This document shows, piece after piece, positions 1-8,003 of a DNA stretch of 54,727 nucleotides. This DNA is from Minisyncoccia bacterium (GTDB lineage Bacteria > Patescibacteriota > Minisyncoccia > Phycocordibacterales > UBA918): the NCBI GenBank assembly GCA_041750655.1, contig JBGSYZ010000010.1, positions 1 through 54,727 on the forward strand. The letters are read 5' to 3'. The translations under genes and the position numbers were made by a program. The notes below the pieces were generated by a model. It did no database searches. It was given only the letters and a program-made list of their open reading frames with translations, and was not told where the DNA came from. Positions within the stretch are counted from its first letter, which is position 1. Every line of letters starts with the position of its first letter.

Positions 1-1314
1 GAGATTTTCTTCGGAAGCGATAATTATGGCTTGGTTACTGTCTAAAATGAATTGACGAGAAAGTTCGAGCCAGCGATTACCTTTTCGTTCAAAATCTTTC
101 AATTTCTCTGAAAAATCAATTTTTTGGTTGAGGAGCTTTTGCTTTTTGGCGATATACTCCTCGCTCGTAATTGTGCTGTCCAAATGAGCGTCAAGAAGCC
201 TATCCAGCGTCTCCTCAACACTTTTGATCTGATTTTTCAGATTTTGAACGAAAAGCTCGTCAGAGTGGAAACTGCTCGCTTGTTCCTTTTCTAGTTCAGC
301 GAGCATGAATTCTTTCCACTCGGACGGCAAAGAAACTTTTTTGATAATGTCATTTGCTTGTTCGGCGAGGAATTCTTCGCGGATATATTTTTGTGTGCAA
401 ACACCTTTCTTTTTGGTACAGCGATAATAGGTATGACCTTTCTGCACTTCGCTGGTGATACCACAGCCGCATTCTTCACACAAAAATATTCCACGAAAAA
501 CATGCTTGTTAATTCCTCGCTTCATCGGGTGAGCATTCCTCGCCGATACTTCCGCGCATTTATCAAAAAGTTTCTTTGAAATCGCTGGCTCGTGCTTTCC
601 TTGGTAAAGTTCTTTGTTGAAAAGGAACATTCCATAATAAAAAGGATTTTTCAAAATCATTTGCGTGTTTGAAACGGTAAGAACTTTACCATTTTTAGAC
701 ACCAAGCCCTTTTGGGCAAGCAAATTCCTTGTATCTTTCAGAGAATAATTTCCAGTAGCATAGACTTCGAACATTTTCCTGACGAGGCGAAATCTCTCCA
801 CATCGGGAATAATTTTCTTGTTCAATTTATCATTTACATATCCCGTCGGAGCTTGACCACTTTGTTCGCCTCGTCTGACTTTTTGTCGAAGTCCGCGCTT
901 CACATTCTCTGAAAGATTATCTACATAGTATTTGCTCTGCCCAAAAGCAATATTTAACATAAACTTACCTTGTGGCGTAGCATCGAACCAAAACGTCGGG
1001 AATTTTAGCTCTTTAATAAGACCGAGGTCGCACAGATAGATTATCTTTCCACCATCAATACTATTTCTCGCCAATCTATCGGGATGCCAAGCTAAAATTC
1101 CCGACGCTTTGCCTTTTTCTATGAGCGAGAGCATATTGTTGAAAATAGGTCTGCCCGGCTCTTTCGCGGTTTGTGATTCAACAAAAGTTTCAACAATCTC
1201 CAACTGCTCTCGCGTGGCAAATTCTTTCAACTCGTCAATTTGCGATTCAATACTCAAAATCTGACGATCTGGTTCGTCGGTAGATTTACGAGCATAGAGA
1301 AAGAATTTGTTCAT
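1..1314 (-). CDS. Large serine recombinase (resolvase catalytic domain + recombinase domain + Zn ribbon + coiled coil), 3' end runs off the window
   Basis: Manual translation from ATG 1314, open for 438 codons to position 1: MNKFFLYARKSTDEPDRQILSIESQ (YxRxS catalytic Ser), WHPDRLARN, SENVKRG, LKNPFYYG, GKHEPAIS, CEECGC...YYRC...C Zn ribbon. Absent from the ORF track because there is no stop in the window. Confidence 0.95.
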   Translation of the reverse strand, partial: MNKFFLYARKSTDEPDRQILSIESQIDELKEFATREQLEIVETFVESQTAKEPGRPIFNNMLSLIEKGKASGILAWHPDRLARNSIDGGKIIYLCDLGLIKELKFPTFWFDATPQGKFMLNIAFGQSKYYVDNLSENVKRGLRQKVRRGEQSGQAPTGYVNDKLNKKIIPDVERFRLVRKMFEVYATGNYSLKDTRNLLAQKGLVSKNGKVLTVSNTQMILKNPFYYGMFLFNKELYQGKHEPAISKKLFDKCAEVSARNAHPMKRGINKHVFRGIFLCEECGCGITSEVQKGHTYYRCTKKKGVCTQKYIREEFLAEQANDIIKKVSLPSEWKEFMLAELEKEQASSFHSDELFVQNLKNQIKSVEETLDRLLDAHLDSTITSEEYIAKKQKLLNQKIDFSEKLKDFERKGNRWLELSRQFILDSNQAIIIASEENL

Positions 1315-1560
1315 AGAAAAAGGTTTATGTTAAATATTGATAATTATTCGCTTCCAGATTGGCTCGCAAAACGAAGTTTTGAATGATGTACTCATCATAA
1401 ACCCCCGCCTCGCGTCCCGCTCGCTTCTTTTGGATTTCAAAAACCCTTGGCGAATTCTGGCGGAAACCCCCGTCGCGTCGCTTTGCGACGCTCCGCATTT
1501 TGGCGAAAACGGCGATTCTATTTTGTTCAGGAGACACAGCCAACTCGTGCTAGCACGAGA
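1..1560. mobile_element. Putative self-folding serine-recombinase element (right part; left end outside the window)
   Basis: Recombinase CDS built of nested inverted repeats. The upstream flank 1340-1355 is complementary to the gene's 3' region 13-27, and 1400-1520 (+) reads like a recombinase C-terminus (NPRLASRSLLLDFKNPWRILAE). Confidence 0.65.
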
Positions 1561-1630
1561 TGCTTAGAAATAAGCTCTTAAAACTAGTTGAGATCTATAC
1601 AATCACAGAAGAAGCCGTAGGCTAATCCAG

Positions 1631-1662
1631 ACTAAAAAATACCCGTCAGGGTGTTTTTTAGT
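1631..1662 (+). terminator. Rho-independent terminator
   Basis: actaaaaaataccc-gtca-gggtgttttttagt hairpin with T-tract. Confidence 0.7.
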
Positions 1663-1714
1663 TGAAATAAAACAATTTCTAAGGTGTAGTAATAGATATC
1701 TGATATACTGAATT

Positions 1715-2284
1715 GTGATGGATAGAAACGATACTCAACTCGTAGCTGATTATTTAAATGGCGATGAAACTGCCCTTGGTTTTCTTGTAGACCGCTATAT
1801 TAAAGATGTGTATCGATTTGCACAGCAACTAACAAATGATGCTGGAGCGGCTGAGGATGTAACTCAGGAATCATTCGTAAAAGCTTGGAAGCATATTCGG
1901 AGCTACCGACAAGGAAGTAATTTTAAGACTTGGATTTTTACCATCACCCGCAACACAGCAATTGATTGGTTACGGAAGCAAAAAGAAATTGCTCTTTCTA
2001 GTTTTGAAAATGTTGAGGGGCAGAATATGTTACTAGAAACTATTGCCGACACTAATCCACTACCTGATGAATTGCTGGTAAGAGCAGAAAACACTGCTCA
2101 TGTTGTATTTTTACTTGAGCAACTTGATTCAAAATACCGTGACGTTCTTACGCTTCGGTACTCAAGCAATATGACATTTGAGGAGATTGGAGAAGTTTTA
2201 CGAAGACCATTACATACCATAAAGAGCCAACATCGGAGAGCATTAGTGATGCTCAGACGGCTACTCGAAGCTGAGCCAGCATAG
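1715..2284 (+). CDS. ECF (sigma-70 family) RNA polymerase sigma factor
   Basis: AEDVTQESFVKAW, FKTWIFTITRNTAIDWLRK (region 2) and region 4 HTH MTFEEIGEVL...TIKSQHRRA. Confidence 0.93.
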   Translation: MMDRNDTQLVADYLNGDETALGFLVDRYIKDVYRFAQQLTNDAGAAEDVTQESFVKAWKHIRSYRQGSNFKTWIFTITRNTAIDWLRKQKEIALSSFENVEGQNMLLETIADTNPLPDELLVRAENTAHVVFLLEQLDSKYRDVLTLRYSSNMTFEEIGEVLRRPLHTIKSQHRRALVMLRRLLEAEPA

Positions 2285-2290
2285 ATATGG

Positions 2291-2325
2291 AAAAGAGTGC
2301 ACCAAAATGCACTCTTTTTTCGTAT
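2291..2325 (+). promoter_or_regulatory. Putative ECF-type promoter (TGCACC-N17-CGTA) overlapping a hairpin
   Basis: tgcacc 2298-2303 and cgta 2321-2324; hairpin aaaagagtgca/tgcactctttt between the sigma and anti-sigma genes. Confidence 0.45.
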
Positions 2326-2332
2326 GGTATGT

Positions 2333-2713
2333 ATGCAAGATAATTTTGAGTTACCAGAAAGCCTCAGAGGCAATATTTTGTTAGGTATTCATACTGAGGA
2401 AAAAAGGCGTGCCAAGCGTCTACTAGTTGTGTCTGCAGTTGTTGCAACCAGTTCATTAGTTGGAATAATCGCATCGCTTAAATATGCGTTAGTGACACTC
2501 TATGAGTCGAGTTTTTATTCCTATGCCTCACTTCTGTTTTCAGATCCTGACGTTGTTACACAATACTGGAAAGAATTCAGTCTAGCATTGTTAGAGTCAC
2601 TTCCAGTGATAGGTATCGTATTGTGTCTCATCGCCGTGTTCGCATTACTTATGTCACTCCGTTTATTTGCACAGAATATGCGGTTTGGTTTTGCTCCAAC
2701 ATTCGCTAATTAA
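2333..2713 (+). CDS. Membrane protein, probable anti-sigma factor
   Basis: Directly follows the ECF sigma; short cytoplasmic N-terminus plus 2 TM helices; ATG 2333 preferred over 2297. Confidence 0.7.
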   Translation: MQDNFELPESLRGNILLGIHTEEKRRAKRLLVVSAVVATSSLVGIIASLKYALVTLYESSFYSYASLLFSDPDVVTQYWKEFSLALLESLPVIGIVLCLIAVFALLMSLRLFAQNMRFGFAPTFAN

Positions 2714-2724
2714 TATTTATTTGT

Positions 2725-3225
2725 ATGTATAAAAATCTTAAAGAATTTACTGCTTCAAAATCCTTTCAAGGAATTTTGATTGGTATTGGCATTTCTATTG
2801 TCGGACTCCTCATTTTTCAAGCCGGAGTCATGGTTGGACAACATAAAGTACAGTTCGGTGACCGATTAGGGAGTCACTTTGAACGTAACTTTGTTGATCT
2901 AGAAAGAGGCGGTTTTGGAAGTCCAAAAGGATTAGGTTTTGGTGAACAGCTTCCTCCTGGTGGACACGGGGCAGTTGGTGAGGTTATCAGCGTCACACTT
3001 CCAACATTTGTGATTGCTGGACCAGACAATCTTGAAAAAACTGTAACTGTTACTGACAACACGTTGATTCGTGAGTTTCGAGATGAACTCAGTACTGATG
3101 GCATAGAAACTGGAAAGTTTGTCGTTGTACTTGGTGAACCAAATGACGATGGTGTGATTAAAGCCAAGTTGATTCGTTTCTTGCCACCTCCACCTGATTT
3201 TATAAAAAATGAAACAAACGAATAA
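2725..3225 (+). CDS. Membrane-anchored protein with a DUF5666-like OB-fold domain
   Basis: N-terminal TM, then G-rich linker and GEVISV...KTVTVTDNT...G..VVV.G...A..I pattern. Confidence 0.65.
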   Translation: MYKNLKEFTASKSFQGILIGIGISIVGLLIFQAGVMVGQHKVQFGDRLGSHFERNFVDLERGGFGSPKGLGFGEQLPPGGHGAVGEVISVTLPTFVIAGPDNLEKTVTVTDNTLIREFRDELSTDGIETGKFVVVLGEPNDDGVIKAKLIRFLPPPPDFIKNETNE

Positions 3226-3227
3226 TT

Positions 3228-4988
3228 ATGAAACTTTTAAAAATTGTAACTAACTATAAATGGTATCTAATCGCAATTGTGATTTTTGCTGGAGGCATTT
3301 ATTACTACACACAAATTTATAATTCAGACAGTACTGATGCAGCACTATCTTTTTATGTAGTCGATACAGTTGAACGTGGTGAGGTAACGTCAGGTATTCT
3401 GACTACGGGTGACATTATTGCTGCCCAAAAACTTGATATAGATGTCTACAAACAGCTTAGTAGAATTGATGTTGTAAACATGGCTAATGGCAGTCATGTT
3501 GAAAAAGGTGACGTGCTCGTTTCTTTTGATAAAAGTGATGCCTACGTAGACACACAATCGTCCAAGGTTGCAGTGGCGGAGGCTCGACTTGCTTTGCAAG
3601 AAGAGCAAGAAAATGTGAATGATCCGAATACACAAATTAGAACCAAAGAAAATCAGATTGTAGGATATAACAAAACTATTATTGATACTGAACAAGATAT
3701 TAAAGATGCTTATAGAGATTTCTTAAATGAAGATTTAGAGGTGGTACCACACCCTGATAAATCAAGTGCTCTTGACGATAGAACCGAGCCAGTCTTATCT
3801 GGAAGATATGTGAGTGATACTCAAGGACAGTACGTTATTGAAGTGTATGCTTCGGCTGCAGATTCTGGATACAGTTATCGCGTAAGCGGTTTGGAGTCAA
3901 TGACGGATTCAGTAATTTTTGGTAAAGCTGTTGACTTGGGTAGTCGTGGTCTAAAAATCACGTTCCCGAGTGACACAAAGACAAGGGATAAATGGGTTGT
4001 GTATGTGCCAAATACAGAGATTGCTACATATTCTGAAACAAAGCGAGTATATGAAGAGAGTGTTGCAGCGTTAGAAAAGACAATTGCTGATACGAAGGTA
4101 AATCTAGCAAATGCTGCACAAGATCTTGCTGACCTAAAACAAACTGACTCCAGTAGTTACCGTGATTTGAATGTAGAGAAAGCCGAATCTAGTTTGTCAG
4201 AAGCACAGCAACGTTTGTCTAAGAACTACGATGTTGTACAAGAGCGAGATATCGTCGCACCTTTTTCAGGAACAGTGGAAGGAATGGAGAACGTTGTCGC
4301 TGGAGCGACCCCAACTGGTGGTACAAATGATTCTATAAATTTAGGTACACTTATTTCCGATGAGTTTCTAACAACATTCACGCTTGGTGCTACCGACGTT
4401 GCGAAAGTTTCGGTGGGACAAAAGGTAAAAGTGACCGTTACATCATTTGCAGAGCAGCCGGTATTCACCGCTGAAATTACACAAATAAGTTCACTGCCTG
4501 AAGCCAGTGGAGTCGCACAGTACAAGGTGCAAGCTTTGATTGAATATGACCGAGCTGCTGCAGAGTTGGTACTTCGTGAAGGAATGTTGGCTGACATAGA
4601 AGTGGTAGAAAAAGAGAGTTCAGATGCACTACGTGTACCAACTTCGGCTATTACGTATGAGCAAGGTGTTCCTAAGGTAACAATTATAGATAAGCTAACT
4701 GAAGAACAACAGCAGCAGGCAAATCGCATGGGTATTGTTCGAACAGAAGGTACAACTATTGCAACATACGATGTTGAGGTAGAGCTTGGTATCGTGGGTC
4801 AATATTATGTTGAAATAATAAGTGGCTTGTCTGAAGGAGATATTATCGTGTCTTCACAACTTTCAGATACGGCGACTGATTCTGTTGTACAGCAAGCAGG
4901 CTTCGGCCCTCCAGGTGGAGGGCAACGGCCAACTGGATCACCGACGGCTGGAAGTGGTGCGCCGGCAGGTAGGGCACCAAGTAACTAG
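3228..4988 (+). CDS. Efflux periplasmic adaptor / membrane fusion protein (MacA/HlyD-like)
   Basis: N-terminal TM, VEKGDVL lipoyl half-motif, coiled coils, IVAPFSGTV, VPTSAI, EIISGLSEGD. Confidence 0.9.
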   Translation: MKLLKIVTNYKWYLIAIVIFAGGIYYYTQIYNSDSTDAALSFYVVDTVERGEVTSGILTTGDIIAAQKLDIDVYKQLSRIDVVNMANGSHVEKGDVLVSFDKSDAYVDTQSSKVAVAEARLALQEEQENVNDPNTQIRTKENQIVGYNKTIIDTEQDIKDAYRDFLNEDLEVVPHPDKSSALDDRTEPVLSGRYVSDTQGQYVIEVYASAADSGYSYRVSGLESMTDSVIFGKAVDLGSRGLKITFPSDTKTRDKWVVYVPNTEIATYSETKRVYEESVAALEKTIADTKVNLANAAQDLADLKQTDSSSYRDLNVEKAESSLSEAQQRLSKNYDVVQERDIVAPFSGTVEGMENVVAGATPTGGTNDSINLGTLISDEFLTTFTLGATDVAKVSVGQKVKVTVTSFAEQPVFTAEITQISSLPEASGVAQYKVQALIEYDRAAAELVLREGMLADIEVVEKESSDALRVPTSAITYEQGVPKVTIIDKLTEEQQQQANRMGIVRTEGTTIATYDVEVELGIVGQYYVEIISGLSEGDIIVSSQLSDTATDSVVQQAGFGPPGGGQRPTGSPTAGSGAPAGRAPSN

Positions 4989-4997
4989 TTAGTAGTC

Positions 4998-5711
4998 ATG
5001 ACTACCCCAACTACAACAACAAAAGTTATTGAACTAAAAGATATATCAAAAAGTTTTTACTTGGCAGGCGGCCTTGAAGTACCTGTACTGCACCATATAA
5101 ATCTGGATATTTTTGAAGGAGACATGATTGCTATTCTTGGTCCTTCTGGTTCTGGTAAATCAACACTAATGAATATTATTGGCGGATTAGATATTGCTAC
5201 CAAGGGGGAGTATCACTTCGCTGGTCAATCAGTAGATACAATGACATCAAATGAACTGGCTGAATTACGCTCAACGGATATCAGTTTCATATTTCAATCG
5301 TTCCATCTTTTGGCAGGAAAAACTGTCTATCAGAATGTGATGTTACCACTCATATATCAACGCTCATTCACTGGTGATTATGATGAGTATGTTACACACG
5401 CTTTGAAGCGAGCTTCACTTGAAGAAGCTCATTGGCACAAGAAGCCAAATCAACTTTCTGGAGGACAGCGCCAGCGTGTAGCTATTGCCCGCGCGCTCGT
5501 AGCGCGTCCCAAATTATTATTAGCAGATGAACCAACAGGTAACTTAGACTCAAAGACGGGAGAGAATATCATTGATTCATTGACGTACTTAAACGAAAAA
5601 TATGGTACTACAATTGTGATCGTGACTCACGATGAGTCATTGACCGAAGTAGTTCATCGCGTAGTCAATATTAAAGACGGAGTCATTAATGAAACCGCTG
5701 GCAAGAAATAG
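4998..5711 (+). CDS. ABC transporter ATP-binding protein (LolD/MacB-like)
   Basis: GPSGSGKST, LSGGQRQRVAIARAL, LADEPTGNLD, VTHD. Confidence 0.96.
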   Translation: MTTPTTTTKVIELKDISKSFYLAGGLEVPVLHHINLDIFEGDMIAILGPSGSGKSTLMNIIGGLDIATKGEYHFAGQSVDTMTSNELAELRSTDISFIFQSFHLLAGKTVYQNVMLPLIYQRSFTGDYDEYVTHALKRASLEEAHWHKKPNQLSGGQRQRVAIARALVARPKLLLADEPTGNLDSKTGENIIDSLTYLNEKYGTTIVIVTHDESLTEVVHRVVNIKDGVINETAGKK

Positions 5712-5712
5712 T

Positions 5713-6894
5713 ATGAAAACAAAATTCCTAATTTCTGAATCGTTACAATCCCTACGCAGTAACTTATTGCGCTCCTTCTTAACAATCATTGGTATTGTGG
5801 TGGGTATTTTTTCTGTTACTGCAATGCTTGCTTTAGGGGAGGGGTTGTCAGCCAATGTACTTGATCGCTTTAGTTCATTTGCAAGTGGCGATATTACTGT
5901 GTCTGGTGAAATTTCATACACTGATTTTTCGTGGATCAACGAACAGCCATATGTCTCAGAATCATTAGCTTCTCTGTCAATTAATAATTCCAAAGTCATT
6001 GCTTTTGGTTCCGATTTTTCTCCCACTACACAGGTTGTTGTAGGTGATTATGAGGGTTTACAGAGCTACGATATTGTCAGCGGTGAGGTGTATGACTGGA
6101 ATGACATTAGTTTCGATGAAGCAGTTATTGTTGTCTCCGATGGTTTCGCTGATGCTGTACAAGAGGAGACTGGTCAGTCTGTATTGGATCAGGATGTTAC
6201 TGTCGGCGGTCAAAAATTTACCGTGATTGGAATAATTGAATCTGGTTCAATGCAGTTTACTCGTGGCGATGGTGTAATACTCGTTCCGTACAATAAAGCA
6301 ATTGGTACCTTAACAAGTACTAAAAACTTTTCTTCTGTATCTGTCTTACTTCAAGATTCATCTTATTTTGAAATTGCCGGACAACACATGCTCGAATCAT
6401 TAAACGCTTCCAGGCAACTAGCTAGCGACAGCGAGGATGTGTTTAGTGTTGAAACTTCACAATCATTCATCGAGACAGCTCAGGAAACGGTTCAGATGAT
6501 CAGTATATTTTTAGGAATCGTTGGAGGGATTGCTCTGTTTGTTGGAGGGATTGGCACAATGAATATGATGCTTACAACTGTGACCGAACGAACAAAAGAA
6601 ATTGGTTTGCGGAAAGCCGTTGGAGCACGCGATCGTGACATAATGCTACAGATTCTTATTGAGTCAGTCGCTCTCACTACTCTAGGTGGGTTTCTGGGAA
6701 TTTTGCTCAGTCTTGGTGTAGGCAAGATAGCTAATACTATTTTTGCTGATAGTGACATTATTTCTATCGTTATAAACACAAAAGTAATAGCACTGGCGTC
6801 ATTTGTAGCTGTAGCTGTCGGTGTAGTGTTTGGTTTGTATCCCGCACGTAACGCCTCAAAACTTCAACCAGTCGATGCATTGCGGTCAGAATAG
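5713..6894 (+). CDS. ABC transporter permease (MacB/FtsX family)
   Basis: RSFLTIIGIVVG, GGIGTMNMMLTTVTERTKEIGLRKAVGA, GLYPARNASKLQPVDALR. Confidence 0.95.
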   Translation: MKTKFLISESLQSLRSNLLRSFLTIIGIVVGIFSVTAMLALGEGLSANVLDRFSSFASGDITVSGEISYTDFSWINEQPYVSESLASLSINNSKVIAFGSDFSPTTQVVVGDYEGLQSYDIVSGEVYDWNDISFDEAVIVVSDGFADAVQEETGQSVLDQDVTVGGQKFTVIGIIESGSMQFTRGDGVILVPYNKAIGTLTSTKNFSSVSVLLQDSSYFEIAGQHMLESLNASRQLASDSEDVFSVETSQSFIETAQETVQMISIFLGIVGGIALFVGGIGTMNMMLTTVTERTKEIGLRKAVGARDRDIMLQILIESVALTTLGGFLGILLSLGVGKIANTIFADSDIISIVINTKVIALASFVAVAVGVVFGLYPARNASKLQPVDALRSE

Positions 6895-6917
6895 ACCCCT
6901 CTAGTGCACCTGACCGA

Positions 6918-6942
6918 GGTGGGTTCGAGTCCTGCTGCGGCA
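6918..6942 (+). other. tRNA 3'-end-like fragment (T-arm), possible att remnant
   Basis: ggtgggttcgagtcctgctgcggca: T-loop TTCGA in a stem, no D-arm upstream. Confidence 0.45.
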
Positions 6943-6967
6943 TATTAATGCGGTATAATTCACAGAT

Positions 6968-7354
6968 ATGATTGACCACATTTCTTTAGGCGTATCTGAT
7001 CTCAAAAAGAGTAGAGATTTTTATCTAAATGCCCTCAAACCACTTGGGTACGATATTATCTATGATATTGAAGATGTAGCTAACTGGGGGATGAATATAA
7101 GTGGATGTAGCATAGGAGAAAATGATCAGACTCGTCTGTGGCTCGAGGGAGACGCGACAGCTCACAAGACACATCTTGCTTTTGTCGGAAAAGATAGAGA
7201 TGTGGTCAACGCATTTTACGAGGCCGCAATGCAAGCAGGAGGCACAGACAATGGTGCTCCTGGGATCAGAGAGCAATACTCTCCAGTATACTATGCAGCG
7301 TTTGTACTAGATCCGGATGGTAATAATATAGAGGTTGTATTTAGAGGGACATAG
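6968..7354 (+). CDS. VOC/glyoxalase family protein
   Basis: MIDHISLGVSDL, HLAF, GGTDNGAPG.R..Y...YYAAFVLDPDGNNIE. Confidence 0.93.
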   Translation: MIDHISLGVSDLKKSRDFYLNALKPLGYDIIYDIEDVANWGMNISGCSIGENDQTRLWLEGDATAHKTHLAFVGKDRDVVNAFYEAAMQAGGTDNGAPGIREQYSPVYYAAFVLDPDGNNIEVVFRGT

Positions 7355-7384
7355 AAGTTCCCACTTCGCACCAGATGGTCATAC
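7355..7384 (+). repeat. Degenerate intergenic repeat, copy A
   Basis: aagttcccacttcgcaccagatggtca matches 7812-7838 at about 20/27 positions; begins right after a stop codon. Confidence 0.5.
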
Positions 7385-7424
7385 AAAGTTGCATTAAATA
7401 CGAATTTTGGAACAATAACTAAAT

Positions 7425-7811
7425 ATGAAAGACCTTAAACTCACAGTCAGAATAAATAAGCCAGTTGAAGAAGTTTTTGACTTCACTACAAATCCAGACA
7501 ACACTCCTAAGTGGATAGGTTCCGTTATGGGTGAAAAAGCAGAAAAATATCCTCCAGAGATTGGTACAAAATATAAAAATTGGGATGAGTCGGAGAAAGT
7601 TAACGAATATGTAGTAACTAAGTATGAACCTTTTAAAGTGTTCCAACTTGATGCTACACATCAAGACTATAAAGTTCGTTACACTTATACTCTAATTTCT
7701 GAAAATGAGACAGAGCTTGAATATTATGAATGGAGTGAATCTGACCAATTACACGCACCGTTTATGCAGAAGATTCTAGATAAGTTGAAGGAAGTGATGG
7801 AACAGCAATAA
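7425..7811 (+). CDS. SRPBCC (START-like/polyketide cyclase) family protein
   Basis: INKPVEEVFDFTTNPDNTPKW N-terminus and C-terminal LDKLKEVME helix. Confidence 0.85.
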   Translation: MKDLKLTVRINKPVEEVFDFTTNPDNTPKWIGSVMGEKAEKYPPEIGTKYKNWDESEKVNEYVVTKYEPFKVFQLDATHQDYKVRYTYTLISENETELEYYEWSESDQLHAPFMQKILDKLKEVMEQQ

Positions 7812-7844
7812 AAGTTCTAACATCGTCCCAGACGGCCAACAGTC
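7812..7844 (+). repeat. Degenerate intergenic repeat, copy B
   Basis: aagttctaacatcgtcccagacggccaacagtc; last 20 nt match 10311-10330 at 17/20. Confidence 0.55.
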
Positions 7845-8003
7845 ATGGGAGACAGGCAGTGTCTCCTGAACTCGCTATCTAGCAGCTTATATTTTAAACG
7901 AGTCATGGGCTCAAACTTTTTCCAAATGTTTCAAAAATAAAAAATTTATTCAAGAACATATTTTTGGTTCGAGTCTCAGAGGGTTTTTGTTATACTTATA
8001 TGT

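Follow-up and report, generated by a model that had tools for sequence, protein, structure and literature searches.

The upstream flank of a large serine recombinase gene in a Minisyncoccia bacterium is probably the far end of a small mobile element at tRNA-Gln

Results

The recombinase gene and an inverted copy of its 3′ end

The window, by which we mean the whole 54,727-nt stretch of Minisyncoccia DNA analysed here, opens with a large serine recombinase (LSR) gene, and the region upstream of this gene, at 1340-1560, is probably the far end of a 1.7-kb mobile element that carries the LSR alone, sits at tRNA-Gln(CTG) and would be a deletion derivative of a family of elements in CPR bacteria (Patescibacteria) that keep a spare attachment site. 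The window begins at the first base of contig C10, one of the 17 contigs of the 906-kb genome, and the first 438 of the 496 LSR codons lie on its minus strand at 1..1314, as determined from the list of open reading frames, Pfam, the contig overlap and the joined frame. The last 58 codons were found on contig C14 (C14:28826-28999), whose last 46 bases were identical to window 1-46 when the intergenic region was searched against the whole genome with blastn. The joined C14 and C10 frame gives an LSR of 496 aa; its C14 part reads ...IGSNPRLASRSLLLDFKNPWRILAETPVASLCDAPHFGENGDSILWLPD*, and the stop codon sits within tRNA-Gln(CTG). We accepted the join because of the 46-nt overlap and because close relatives of 97-98% identity carry the frame unbroken, as one piece of 496 aa (such continuous frames occur in relatives of 94-98% identity), and it is on these two points that the predicted adjacency of C14 and C10 at window position 1 rests. 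Three Pfam domains, all exceeding their curated cut-offs, follow one another in the protein, namely PF00239 Resolvase (residues 5-150, 1.1e-21), PF07508 Recombinase (177-256, 5.2e-14) and PF13408 Zn_ribbon_recom (273-316, 7.9e-8). Residues 6-14 read LYARKSTDE, at what we take to be the usual place of the catalytic serine motif.

The first-pass annotation had proposed that the upstream flank repeats the recombinase's own 3′ end in inverted form. The sequence left of position 1 was recovered from C14, and its reverse complement was found to match the upstream flank, so that the proposal holds, at 100% over 127 nt and with weaker blocks reaching to 1340. The upstream arm of the repeat (1400..1526, plus strand) is a perfect 127-nt reverse complement of C14:28837-28963 by both blastn and pairwise alignment; a perfect match of this length would be far beyond chance. 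The C14 arm lies 36 nt left of window position 1, and it doubles as the P′ arm of the attachment site and as code for the C-terminal tail of the LSR. The G+C content of the upstream arm is 0.56-0.60 versus about 0.40 in the surroundings. The LSR frame passes through the C14 arm and gives the same peptide as the plus strand of the upstream arm; in tblastn, the LSR tail matched the plus strand of 1400-1528 with 97.7% identity over 43 aa, and the plus-strand frame at 1337-1567 reads ...NPRLASRSLLLDFKNPWRILAETPVASLCDAPHFGENGDSIL... (also quoted as ...NPRLASRSLLLDFKNPWRILAETP...).

Inward of the arm, the mirror similarity goes on in blocks, which appeared in the pairwise alignment as CGAGCCAATCT and then GGAAGCG(A)ATAATTAT and which are split by a 31-nt insert in the upstream copy, where it holds both hairpins described below, and by a 37-nt insert in the coding copy. 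The block ATAATTATTCGCTTCC at 1340-1355 agrees with the reverse complement of window 14-28 at 15/16 positions with one 1-nt indel, and the "IGS" block AGATTGGCTCG at 1356-1366 is present in the coding copy too. The LSR leader or promoter region (1315..1399, minus strand) is made up of these two decayed mirror blocks of the gene 3′ end and the 31-nt hairpin insert, and a counterpart of it, 83-88 nt long, is kept in relatives of 91-98% identity. The quoted strings, the IGS block, the two hairpins and the plus-strand frame had all been read correctly in the first-pass annotation, each in its place. The inner ends of the arms (e.g., C14:28960-28969) carry a conserved GGTTC(G), a T-loop-like string, which in the coding copy reads on as GGTTCGAGCC and encodes a conserved IGSNP.

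Two hairpins beside the upstream arm

Hairpin 1 (1383..1398, ATGATG-TACT-CATCAT) has a 6-bp stem and a 4-nt loop, and hairpin 2 (1367..1381, CAAAAC-GAA-GTTTTG) has a 6-bp stem and a 3-nt loop. When covariation was followed in 25 distinct relatives, 6/6 pairs of hairpin 1 were changed on both sides with 90% of the cells paired, and 5/6 pairs of hairpin 2 were changed on both sides, which gives 11/12 pairs for the two. Over both hairpins 82.9% of the cells were paired versus 60.0% in shuffles (0/500 reached the observed value), and sliding the hairpin partners in the same relatives dropped pairing to 30-46%. Judged by this covariation, the two hairpins are conserved structures, in DNA or RNA. 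In the upstream copy they are inserted exactly between GGTTC and GAGCC, two strings that are contiguous in the coding copy. Many relatives have hairpins centred on GCGAAGC or GCAAAGC, and DNA hairpins of these two sequences are unusually stable.

An RNA gene was also considered for the G+C-rich stretch and rejected, as an Rfam search of window 1-6000 with E up to 1 returned nothing in 1315-1714; its sole match was STnc320 at 2283-2338, which was below the gathering score and terminator-hairpin-like. No tRNA or tmRNA was detected by ARAGORN in the upstream flank. A promoter scan of 1200-1760 gave one sigma-70-like site, where 1.0 is expected by chance, on the minus strand at 1543-1515 (TTGGCT-17 nt-TAGAAT). 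This promoter-like site covers the core together with the outer arm end and is directed at the LSR gene; a transcript from it would begin with the arm and have the arm's complement at the 3′ end of the coding region. Further out, the fold showed a strong palindromic hairpin of terminator-like form with A- and T-run flanks (1633-1660), in the interval that separates the element from the sigma-factor gene; this hairpin was missing from the terminator scan.

The same layout in a paralogue and in related genomes

A paralogue of the LSR (41% identical, 528 aa) lies in the middle of a contig at C12:30003-31759 (L002 2504-4260). Its 3′ end overlaps tRNA-Glu(CTC), and the gene is flanked by an inverted repeat, perfect over 115 nt, whose arms are 1469 nt apart. 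The core of this paralogue is TCAC, and both the inverted core (GTGA) and the GTTCG-bearing P arm are present in intact form; a whole-genome search yielded no distal P arm for it. Among 61 related genomes, an LSR homologue was found in 40. The close LSRs in this set (at least 44% identity) had repeats of 133-147 nt with gaps of 1402-1568 nt and mostly adjoined a tRNA, and no repeat was found within 1.5 kb of the distant ones (at most 43% identity). A partial LSR homologue (30% identity over 177 aa) was also observed at the start of another contig of the genome (C16:5-532).

For the wider family one genome per species was scanned, which gave at least 542 relatives among at least 600 matched stretches, and the best 80 were kept; the relatives in this set are kin, and the counts taken from it are not independent. 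According to the record titles, these best 80 of at least 542 are spread over Minisyncoccia, Nomurabacteria, Paceibacterota, Saccharibacteria, Doudnabacteria and others, and the top LSR matches among them, again in several CPR classes by record titles, share 91-99% protein identity, a level that points to recent transfer between classes. A repeat flanking the LSR was present in 58 of the 61 loci of this best-80 set that could be tested, the remainder being 3 with room but no repeat and 19 without room to test. Where the arms were at least 80 nt long (84-219 nt; n=53, best 80 of at least 542 relatives), 26 pairs were 100% identical and 46 were at least 95% identical. At 46 of the 58 repeat loci a tRNA (32 Gln, 11 Ser, 3 Ala) was located at the arm of the LSR 3′ end with an overlap of about 5 nt; the other repeat loci of the same best-80 set consisted of 1 reversed (L176), 7 without room and 4 without a tRNA. 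In the reversed locus the tRNA lies beside the 5′ arm and the P arm beside the 3′ arm, the arms are 91% identical, and the frame stops 191 nt early. The LSR frame reads on beyond the core by 1-282 nt, varying by locus (best 80 of at least 542 relatives).

Thirty loci offered 1000 nt or more of room for a second repeat pair; 16 of them had one abutting the first pair, and 14 showed none (best 80 of at least 542 relatives). In these 16 loci, taken from the same best 80, the second pair measured 72-409 nt and boxed 1006-7426 nt of cargo; in L065 it was 246 nt long and 100% identical. Between elements of 94-98% identity the 15-20 nt adjoining the core vary, with the two arms of each element staying identical, so that the arms are homogenised within an element. 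In L167, L187 and L161 the arms carry different core-proximal variants (arm identity 70.7%, 85.9% and 94.7%, respectively), and it looks as if modules had been exchanged between elements.

Anatomy of the attachment sites

The junctions were compared in all loci with at least 60% identity (best 80 of at least 542 relatives). Three types of site in the relatives share the core CAGC(CA), namely the tRNA junction, an internal inverted site and a distal junction. At the tRNA junction the order is tRNA arm, core and P′ arm. Outside the upstream arm the relatives show a conserved P arm, core and P′ arm, inverted relative to the tRNA junction, and at the distal junction of loci with a second repeat pair the P arm and the core are followed by unrelated flank. 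Because the arm is followed in relatives by an inverted core and a P arm, the upstream arm is, as judged from these alignments, one half of a spare copy, internal and inverted, of the joined element ends.

The arms around the short shared core are unlike each other, and in this copy CAGCCA ends the tRNA at one junction and occupies 1537-1542 at the other. In the P arm, GTTCG begins 23 nt before the core in 29/29 tRNA-Gln loci, and in the tRNA the T-loop GTTCG begins 18 nt before the core in 25/29, the other 4 being a later pattern match. In the relevant passages of Rutherford et al. (2013, PMC3783163), the zinc-ribbon-domain motif of serine integrases is placed about 5 bp closer to the centre in attB than in attP. 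The 5-nt shift of GTTCG between the P arm and the tRNA fits this attP/attB spacing as given in those passages, and the match supports the view that the sites are true serine-integrase sites with the tRNA 3′ end as putative attB. The distal flank of L164 resembles the DNA directly after tRNA-Gln in the unoccupied metagenome contigs L123 and L141, a hint that these may represent the empty site for L164.

A 1.7-kb copy with a shortened distal end

The element extends from C14:28838 to window 1542, about 1705 nt, with one gene, the LSR. By comparison with the P arms of at least 30 relatives and by alignment with L183, L170 and L175, a P-arm remnant was recognised at 1520..1536 (plus strand), which consists of the last 17 nt in direct orientation, overlaps the repeat arm by 7 nt (ATTTTGT) and lacks the GTTCG motif of intact P arms. 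It is followed by the core CAGCCA at 1537..1542 (plus strand), the right end of the element, and the same six bases end tRNA-Gln at C14:28832-28837. The next stretch, 1543..1566 (plus strand), starts with a 7-bp hairpin and, from its likeness to other tRNA-Gln flanks, is probably the original DNA downstream of tRNA-Gln (B′ side). A similar hairpin stands directly after tRNA-Gln in L147 and in L107, the latter of which also has FtsE/FtsX upstream. At the start of contig C15 (C15:1-223, L003), a 7-bp hairpin almost identical to that of window 1544-1559 comes after tRNA-Ser(TGA), with a longer palindrome behind it; the arrangement may represent either a further small element or a signal shared by regions downstream of tRNA genes.

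Alignment with intact relatives showed that the inverted spare core, the inverted P arm and the cargo are absent from this copy, and among the loci examined the direct fusion of the arm to the P remnant was seen in this window only. We infer that it arose by deletion, with two short direct repeats at the foot of the cargo palindrome as end-points. Because the P arm is without GTTCG and the spare core is gone, the copy has probably lost the ability to excise by itself, though its LSR is intact and could work on other cassettes of the genome.

None of 87 metagenome stretches that share the exact tRNA-Gln tail proved to be an orthologous empty site; most belong to unrelated lineages, and of the 80 with flanks, 4 had an LSR match and 2 had the repeat. 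In 60 genomes of the genus the best match to the sigma-factor gene at 1715-2284 had 36% identity, too little for a close orthologue, and synteny could therefore not define the empty site. When a second copy of 1527-1560 was sought in the whole genome, only a relic at 7853..7871 (plus strand) was recovered, which resembles the inverted core together with the first part of the P arm (16/19 against the reverse complement of 1525-1543). A motif search with 1525-1543 gave 2 matches, its own site and this relic, where 0.01 is expected by chance, and the relic is possibly the scar of an older element. A tRNA 3′ fragment was also observed at 6918-6945, directly after the ABC permease gene, with a T-arm containing GGTTCGAGTCC and an acceptor strand one base off that of tRNA-Gln and without CCA; a second GGTTCGAGTC occurs at 7966-7975. 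These two places are possible scars of older tRNA-Gln insertions, and the DNA from 1543 to about 7870 may be old island DNA.

The module in public metagenomes

Of the 20 public runs listed as matching the window, 2 contain most of window 1-8000, and the remaining 18, which come from 15 other studies, contain 8-11% of its words. When four runs were compared, a freshwater run and a cave run covered only about 1-1600 at 90% identity or more and almost nothing beyond, and the probable source run and its sister sample alone extended into the flank beyond about 1600. Since two unrelated metagenomes share only about 1-1600, the recombinase module is what travels. The freshwater and cave contigs that match to 1509 then diverge, the outer 17 nt of the arm being different there. 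The repeat edges, at 1429 and 1497, are where the public contigs break off; no circle junction and no joint for excision or inversion was seen in the four runs, and, as contigs ending in the repeat, these data are silent on inversion and excision.

Discussion

In the mechanism that we propose, the LSR of the family would integrate a circle by recombining P-CAGC-P′ with the 3′ end of a tRNA gene, and the anatomy of the sites gives good support to an integration step that joins P-core-P′ to the tRNA 3′ end. The P′ arm overlaps the last ~45 codons of the LSR gene, and a second, inverted copy of the whole site is kept just upstream of the gene, so that two P′ arms box the LSR gene as long near-perfect inverted repeats and two P arms box the cargo where it is present. 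Of the spare site only the P′ part (1400-1526) would be left in the present copy, fused through ATTTTGT to the last 17 nt of P; the deletion would account for the loss of the spare core and the inverted P arm, together with any cargo and the greater part of the distal P arm. Recombination between the arms would keep them identical and would let each module turn over or be exchanged; with low confidence, we suggest that keeping or exchanging modules is the role of the spare site.

Other explanations of the repeat were weighed against this reading. The locus is divided between two contigs that overlap by just 46 nt, as would be expected of a chimeric join at a contig end, and a leftover of a second inverted recombinase gene could likewise leave a relic by chance; we regard such an artefact or relic as extremely improbable, since the same layout lies within a single contig of this genome (C12) and recurs in 58 loci from many independent assemblies (best 80 of at least 542 relatives), with conserved repeat boundaries marked by GGTTC inside and the CAGC core outside. 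The first-pass annotation had suggested a self-inverting segment that swaps C-termini. In such a switch the LSR or homologous recombination would flip the 1.4-kb segment between the arms and toggle LSR expression versus tRNA read-through or C-terminal residues. The LSR gene does lie between perfect inverted arms, its frame is open through either arm (ending ...SILWLPD* now and ...SILFRRHSQLVLARDA* if flipped), the tRNA of L176 is at the 5′ arm with the P arm at the 3′ arm, and the arms are homogenised within elements. However, 46/47 relatives with a readable tRNA side (best 80 of at least 542) share one orientation with the gene 3′ end toward the tRNA, which argues against frequent flipping, and in the flipped L176 the arms are 91% identical and the frame ends 191 nt early. 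No reads or contigs displayed a second orientation at this locus. A flip would moreover alter nothing except the gene's own last codons, and the tail that was thought to be swapped is frame read-on past the core, 1-282 nt and specific to each locus, and probably incidental. A self-inverting switch is unlikely on these grounds.

The same annotation had alternatively described the repeat as a terminal inverted repeat forming the stem of a folded element. The terminal position is right for the present 1.7-kb copy, which has an arm at each end beside an att-type junction, and not for the family, in which the arm is internal. It seems quite improbable that the 127-nt arms are the true terminal inverted repeats of a recombinase-only insertion sequence, an autonomous minimal transposon: every readable relative has the core and the conserved P arm after the upstream arm and not target DNA, a second repeat pair and cargo abut the arm in 16 loci (best 80 of at least 542), and the direct fusion was seen in this window alone. 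The arms at both ends of this copy, the unit at window ~1-1600 shared by unrelated metagenomes and the contigs of many relatives that end just beyond the upstream arm all speak for such a transposon, although contig ends at that place are what a repeat causes in assembly. As for single-strand fold-back, in which the arms would pair during uptake or replication and the spare site would splint the element ends into a duplex attachment site, the arms and core are complementary, the geometry permits it, and two covarying mini-hairpins, many with GCGAAGC or GCAAAGC centres, lie just inside the arm. Serine recombinases, however, cut double-stranded DNA; by reasoning, a folded strand recombined with the chromosome would leave hairpin-capped breaks. 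Neither a single-stranded nor a circular form was seen, and the present copy is without the splint core. We hold fold-back to be highly improbable.

The reading of 1340-1560 as the far end of a deletion derivative with one gene is therefore preferred. A bolder extension of it, which is rather doubtful at present, would make the spare site a working part, with the LSR and cargo modules each flipped or swapped at tRNA ends in an integron-like manner by a serine recombinase, the mini-hairpins serving as single-stranded or cruciform signals, and a cargo-less copy such as this one giving enzyme in trans to recombinase-less cassettes. To our knowledge canonical serine integrases do not recombine attP with attL or attR, and an LSR-driven flip of modules would for this reason break the known rules.

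The family is a very common and apparently undescribed mobile element of the ultra-small CPR bacteria that inserts at tRNA gene ends. In the open literature, taken at the level of abstracts, no CPR or tRNA-targeting serine-recombinase element with an inverted spare site was found to be described. If the proposal is true, the family would provide a compact serine integrase for which the universal T-loop and 3′ end of tRNAs serve as the recognised target and which, by record titles, is spreading nearly unchanged across CPR classes, and it would be a candidate for the main route of gene exchange in CPR bacteria, which have few known mobile elements. The inverted spare site raises the question of how directionality and module exchange are controlled, and the present copy would be a natural deletion form in which the recombinase module is separated from the spare core. 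For annotation, the family would explain the frequent breaks of CPR assemblies next to tRNA genes.

Comparison with known systems

We rate the family as a serine-integrase element with an unusual tRNA target and a spare site that is without a described counterpart in the open literature. It is like the phage-type large serine integrases (Listeria A118/LI, phiC31 and Bxb1), as portrayed in passages of PMC3783163, in its three-domain recombinase, in a short core between unlike arms and in a motif whose distance from the core is 5 nt greater in the element arm than in the host arm. As in those systems, the recombinase gene adjoins the site. Unlike them, the family targets tRNA 3′ ends with the T-loop as host motif, its LSR frame crosses the core, its elements are tiny (1.7 to ~9 kb), and it keeps a full inverted spare site with hundreds of flank bases.

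Small non-phage elements of clostridia, Tn4451/Tn4453 with TnpX and Tn5397 with TndX, have an LSR at one end as the sole mobility gene, as is the case here; we know of no long inverted repeats, tRNA target or internal spare site in them. The serine invertase switches (Hin/hix, Gin/gix, PinQ) are similar in that a serine recombinase gene lies in or beside a segment bounded by inverted sites. Switches of the Hin/Gin type use small recombinases, 26-bp sites and an enhancer, and both orientations coexist. The family differs from Hin, Gin and PinQ in its large recombinase, in arms of 84-219 nt and in the single orientation of 46/47 loci (best 80 of at least 542). The yeast 2-micron plasmid carries Flp, a tyrosine recombinase, and 599-bp inverted repeats, and it replicates. 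The recombinase of the family, by contrast, is of the serine type, and neither a replication gene nor a circle was seen here; as in the 2-micron plasmid, two inverted sites would split a circular form, if one exists, into two arcs.
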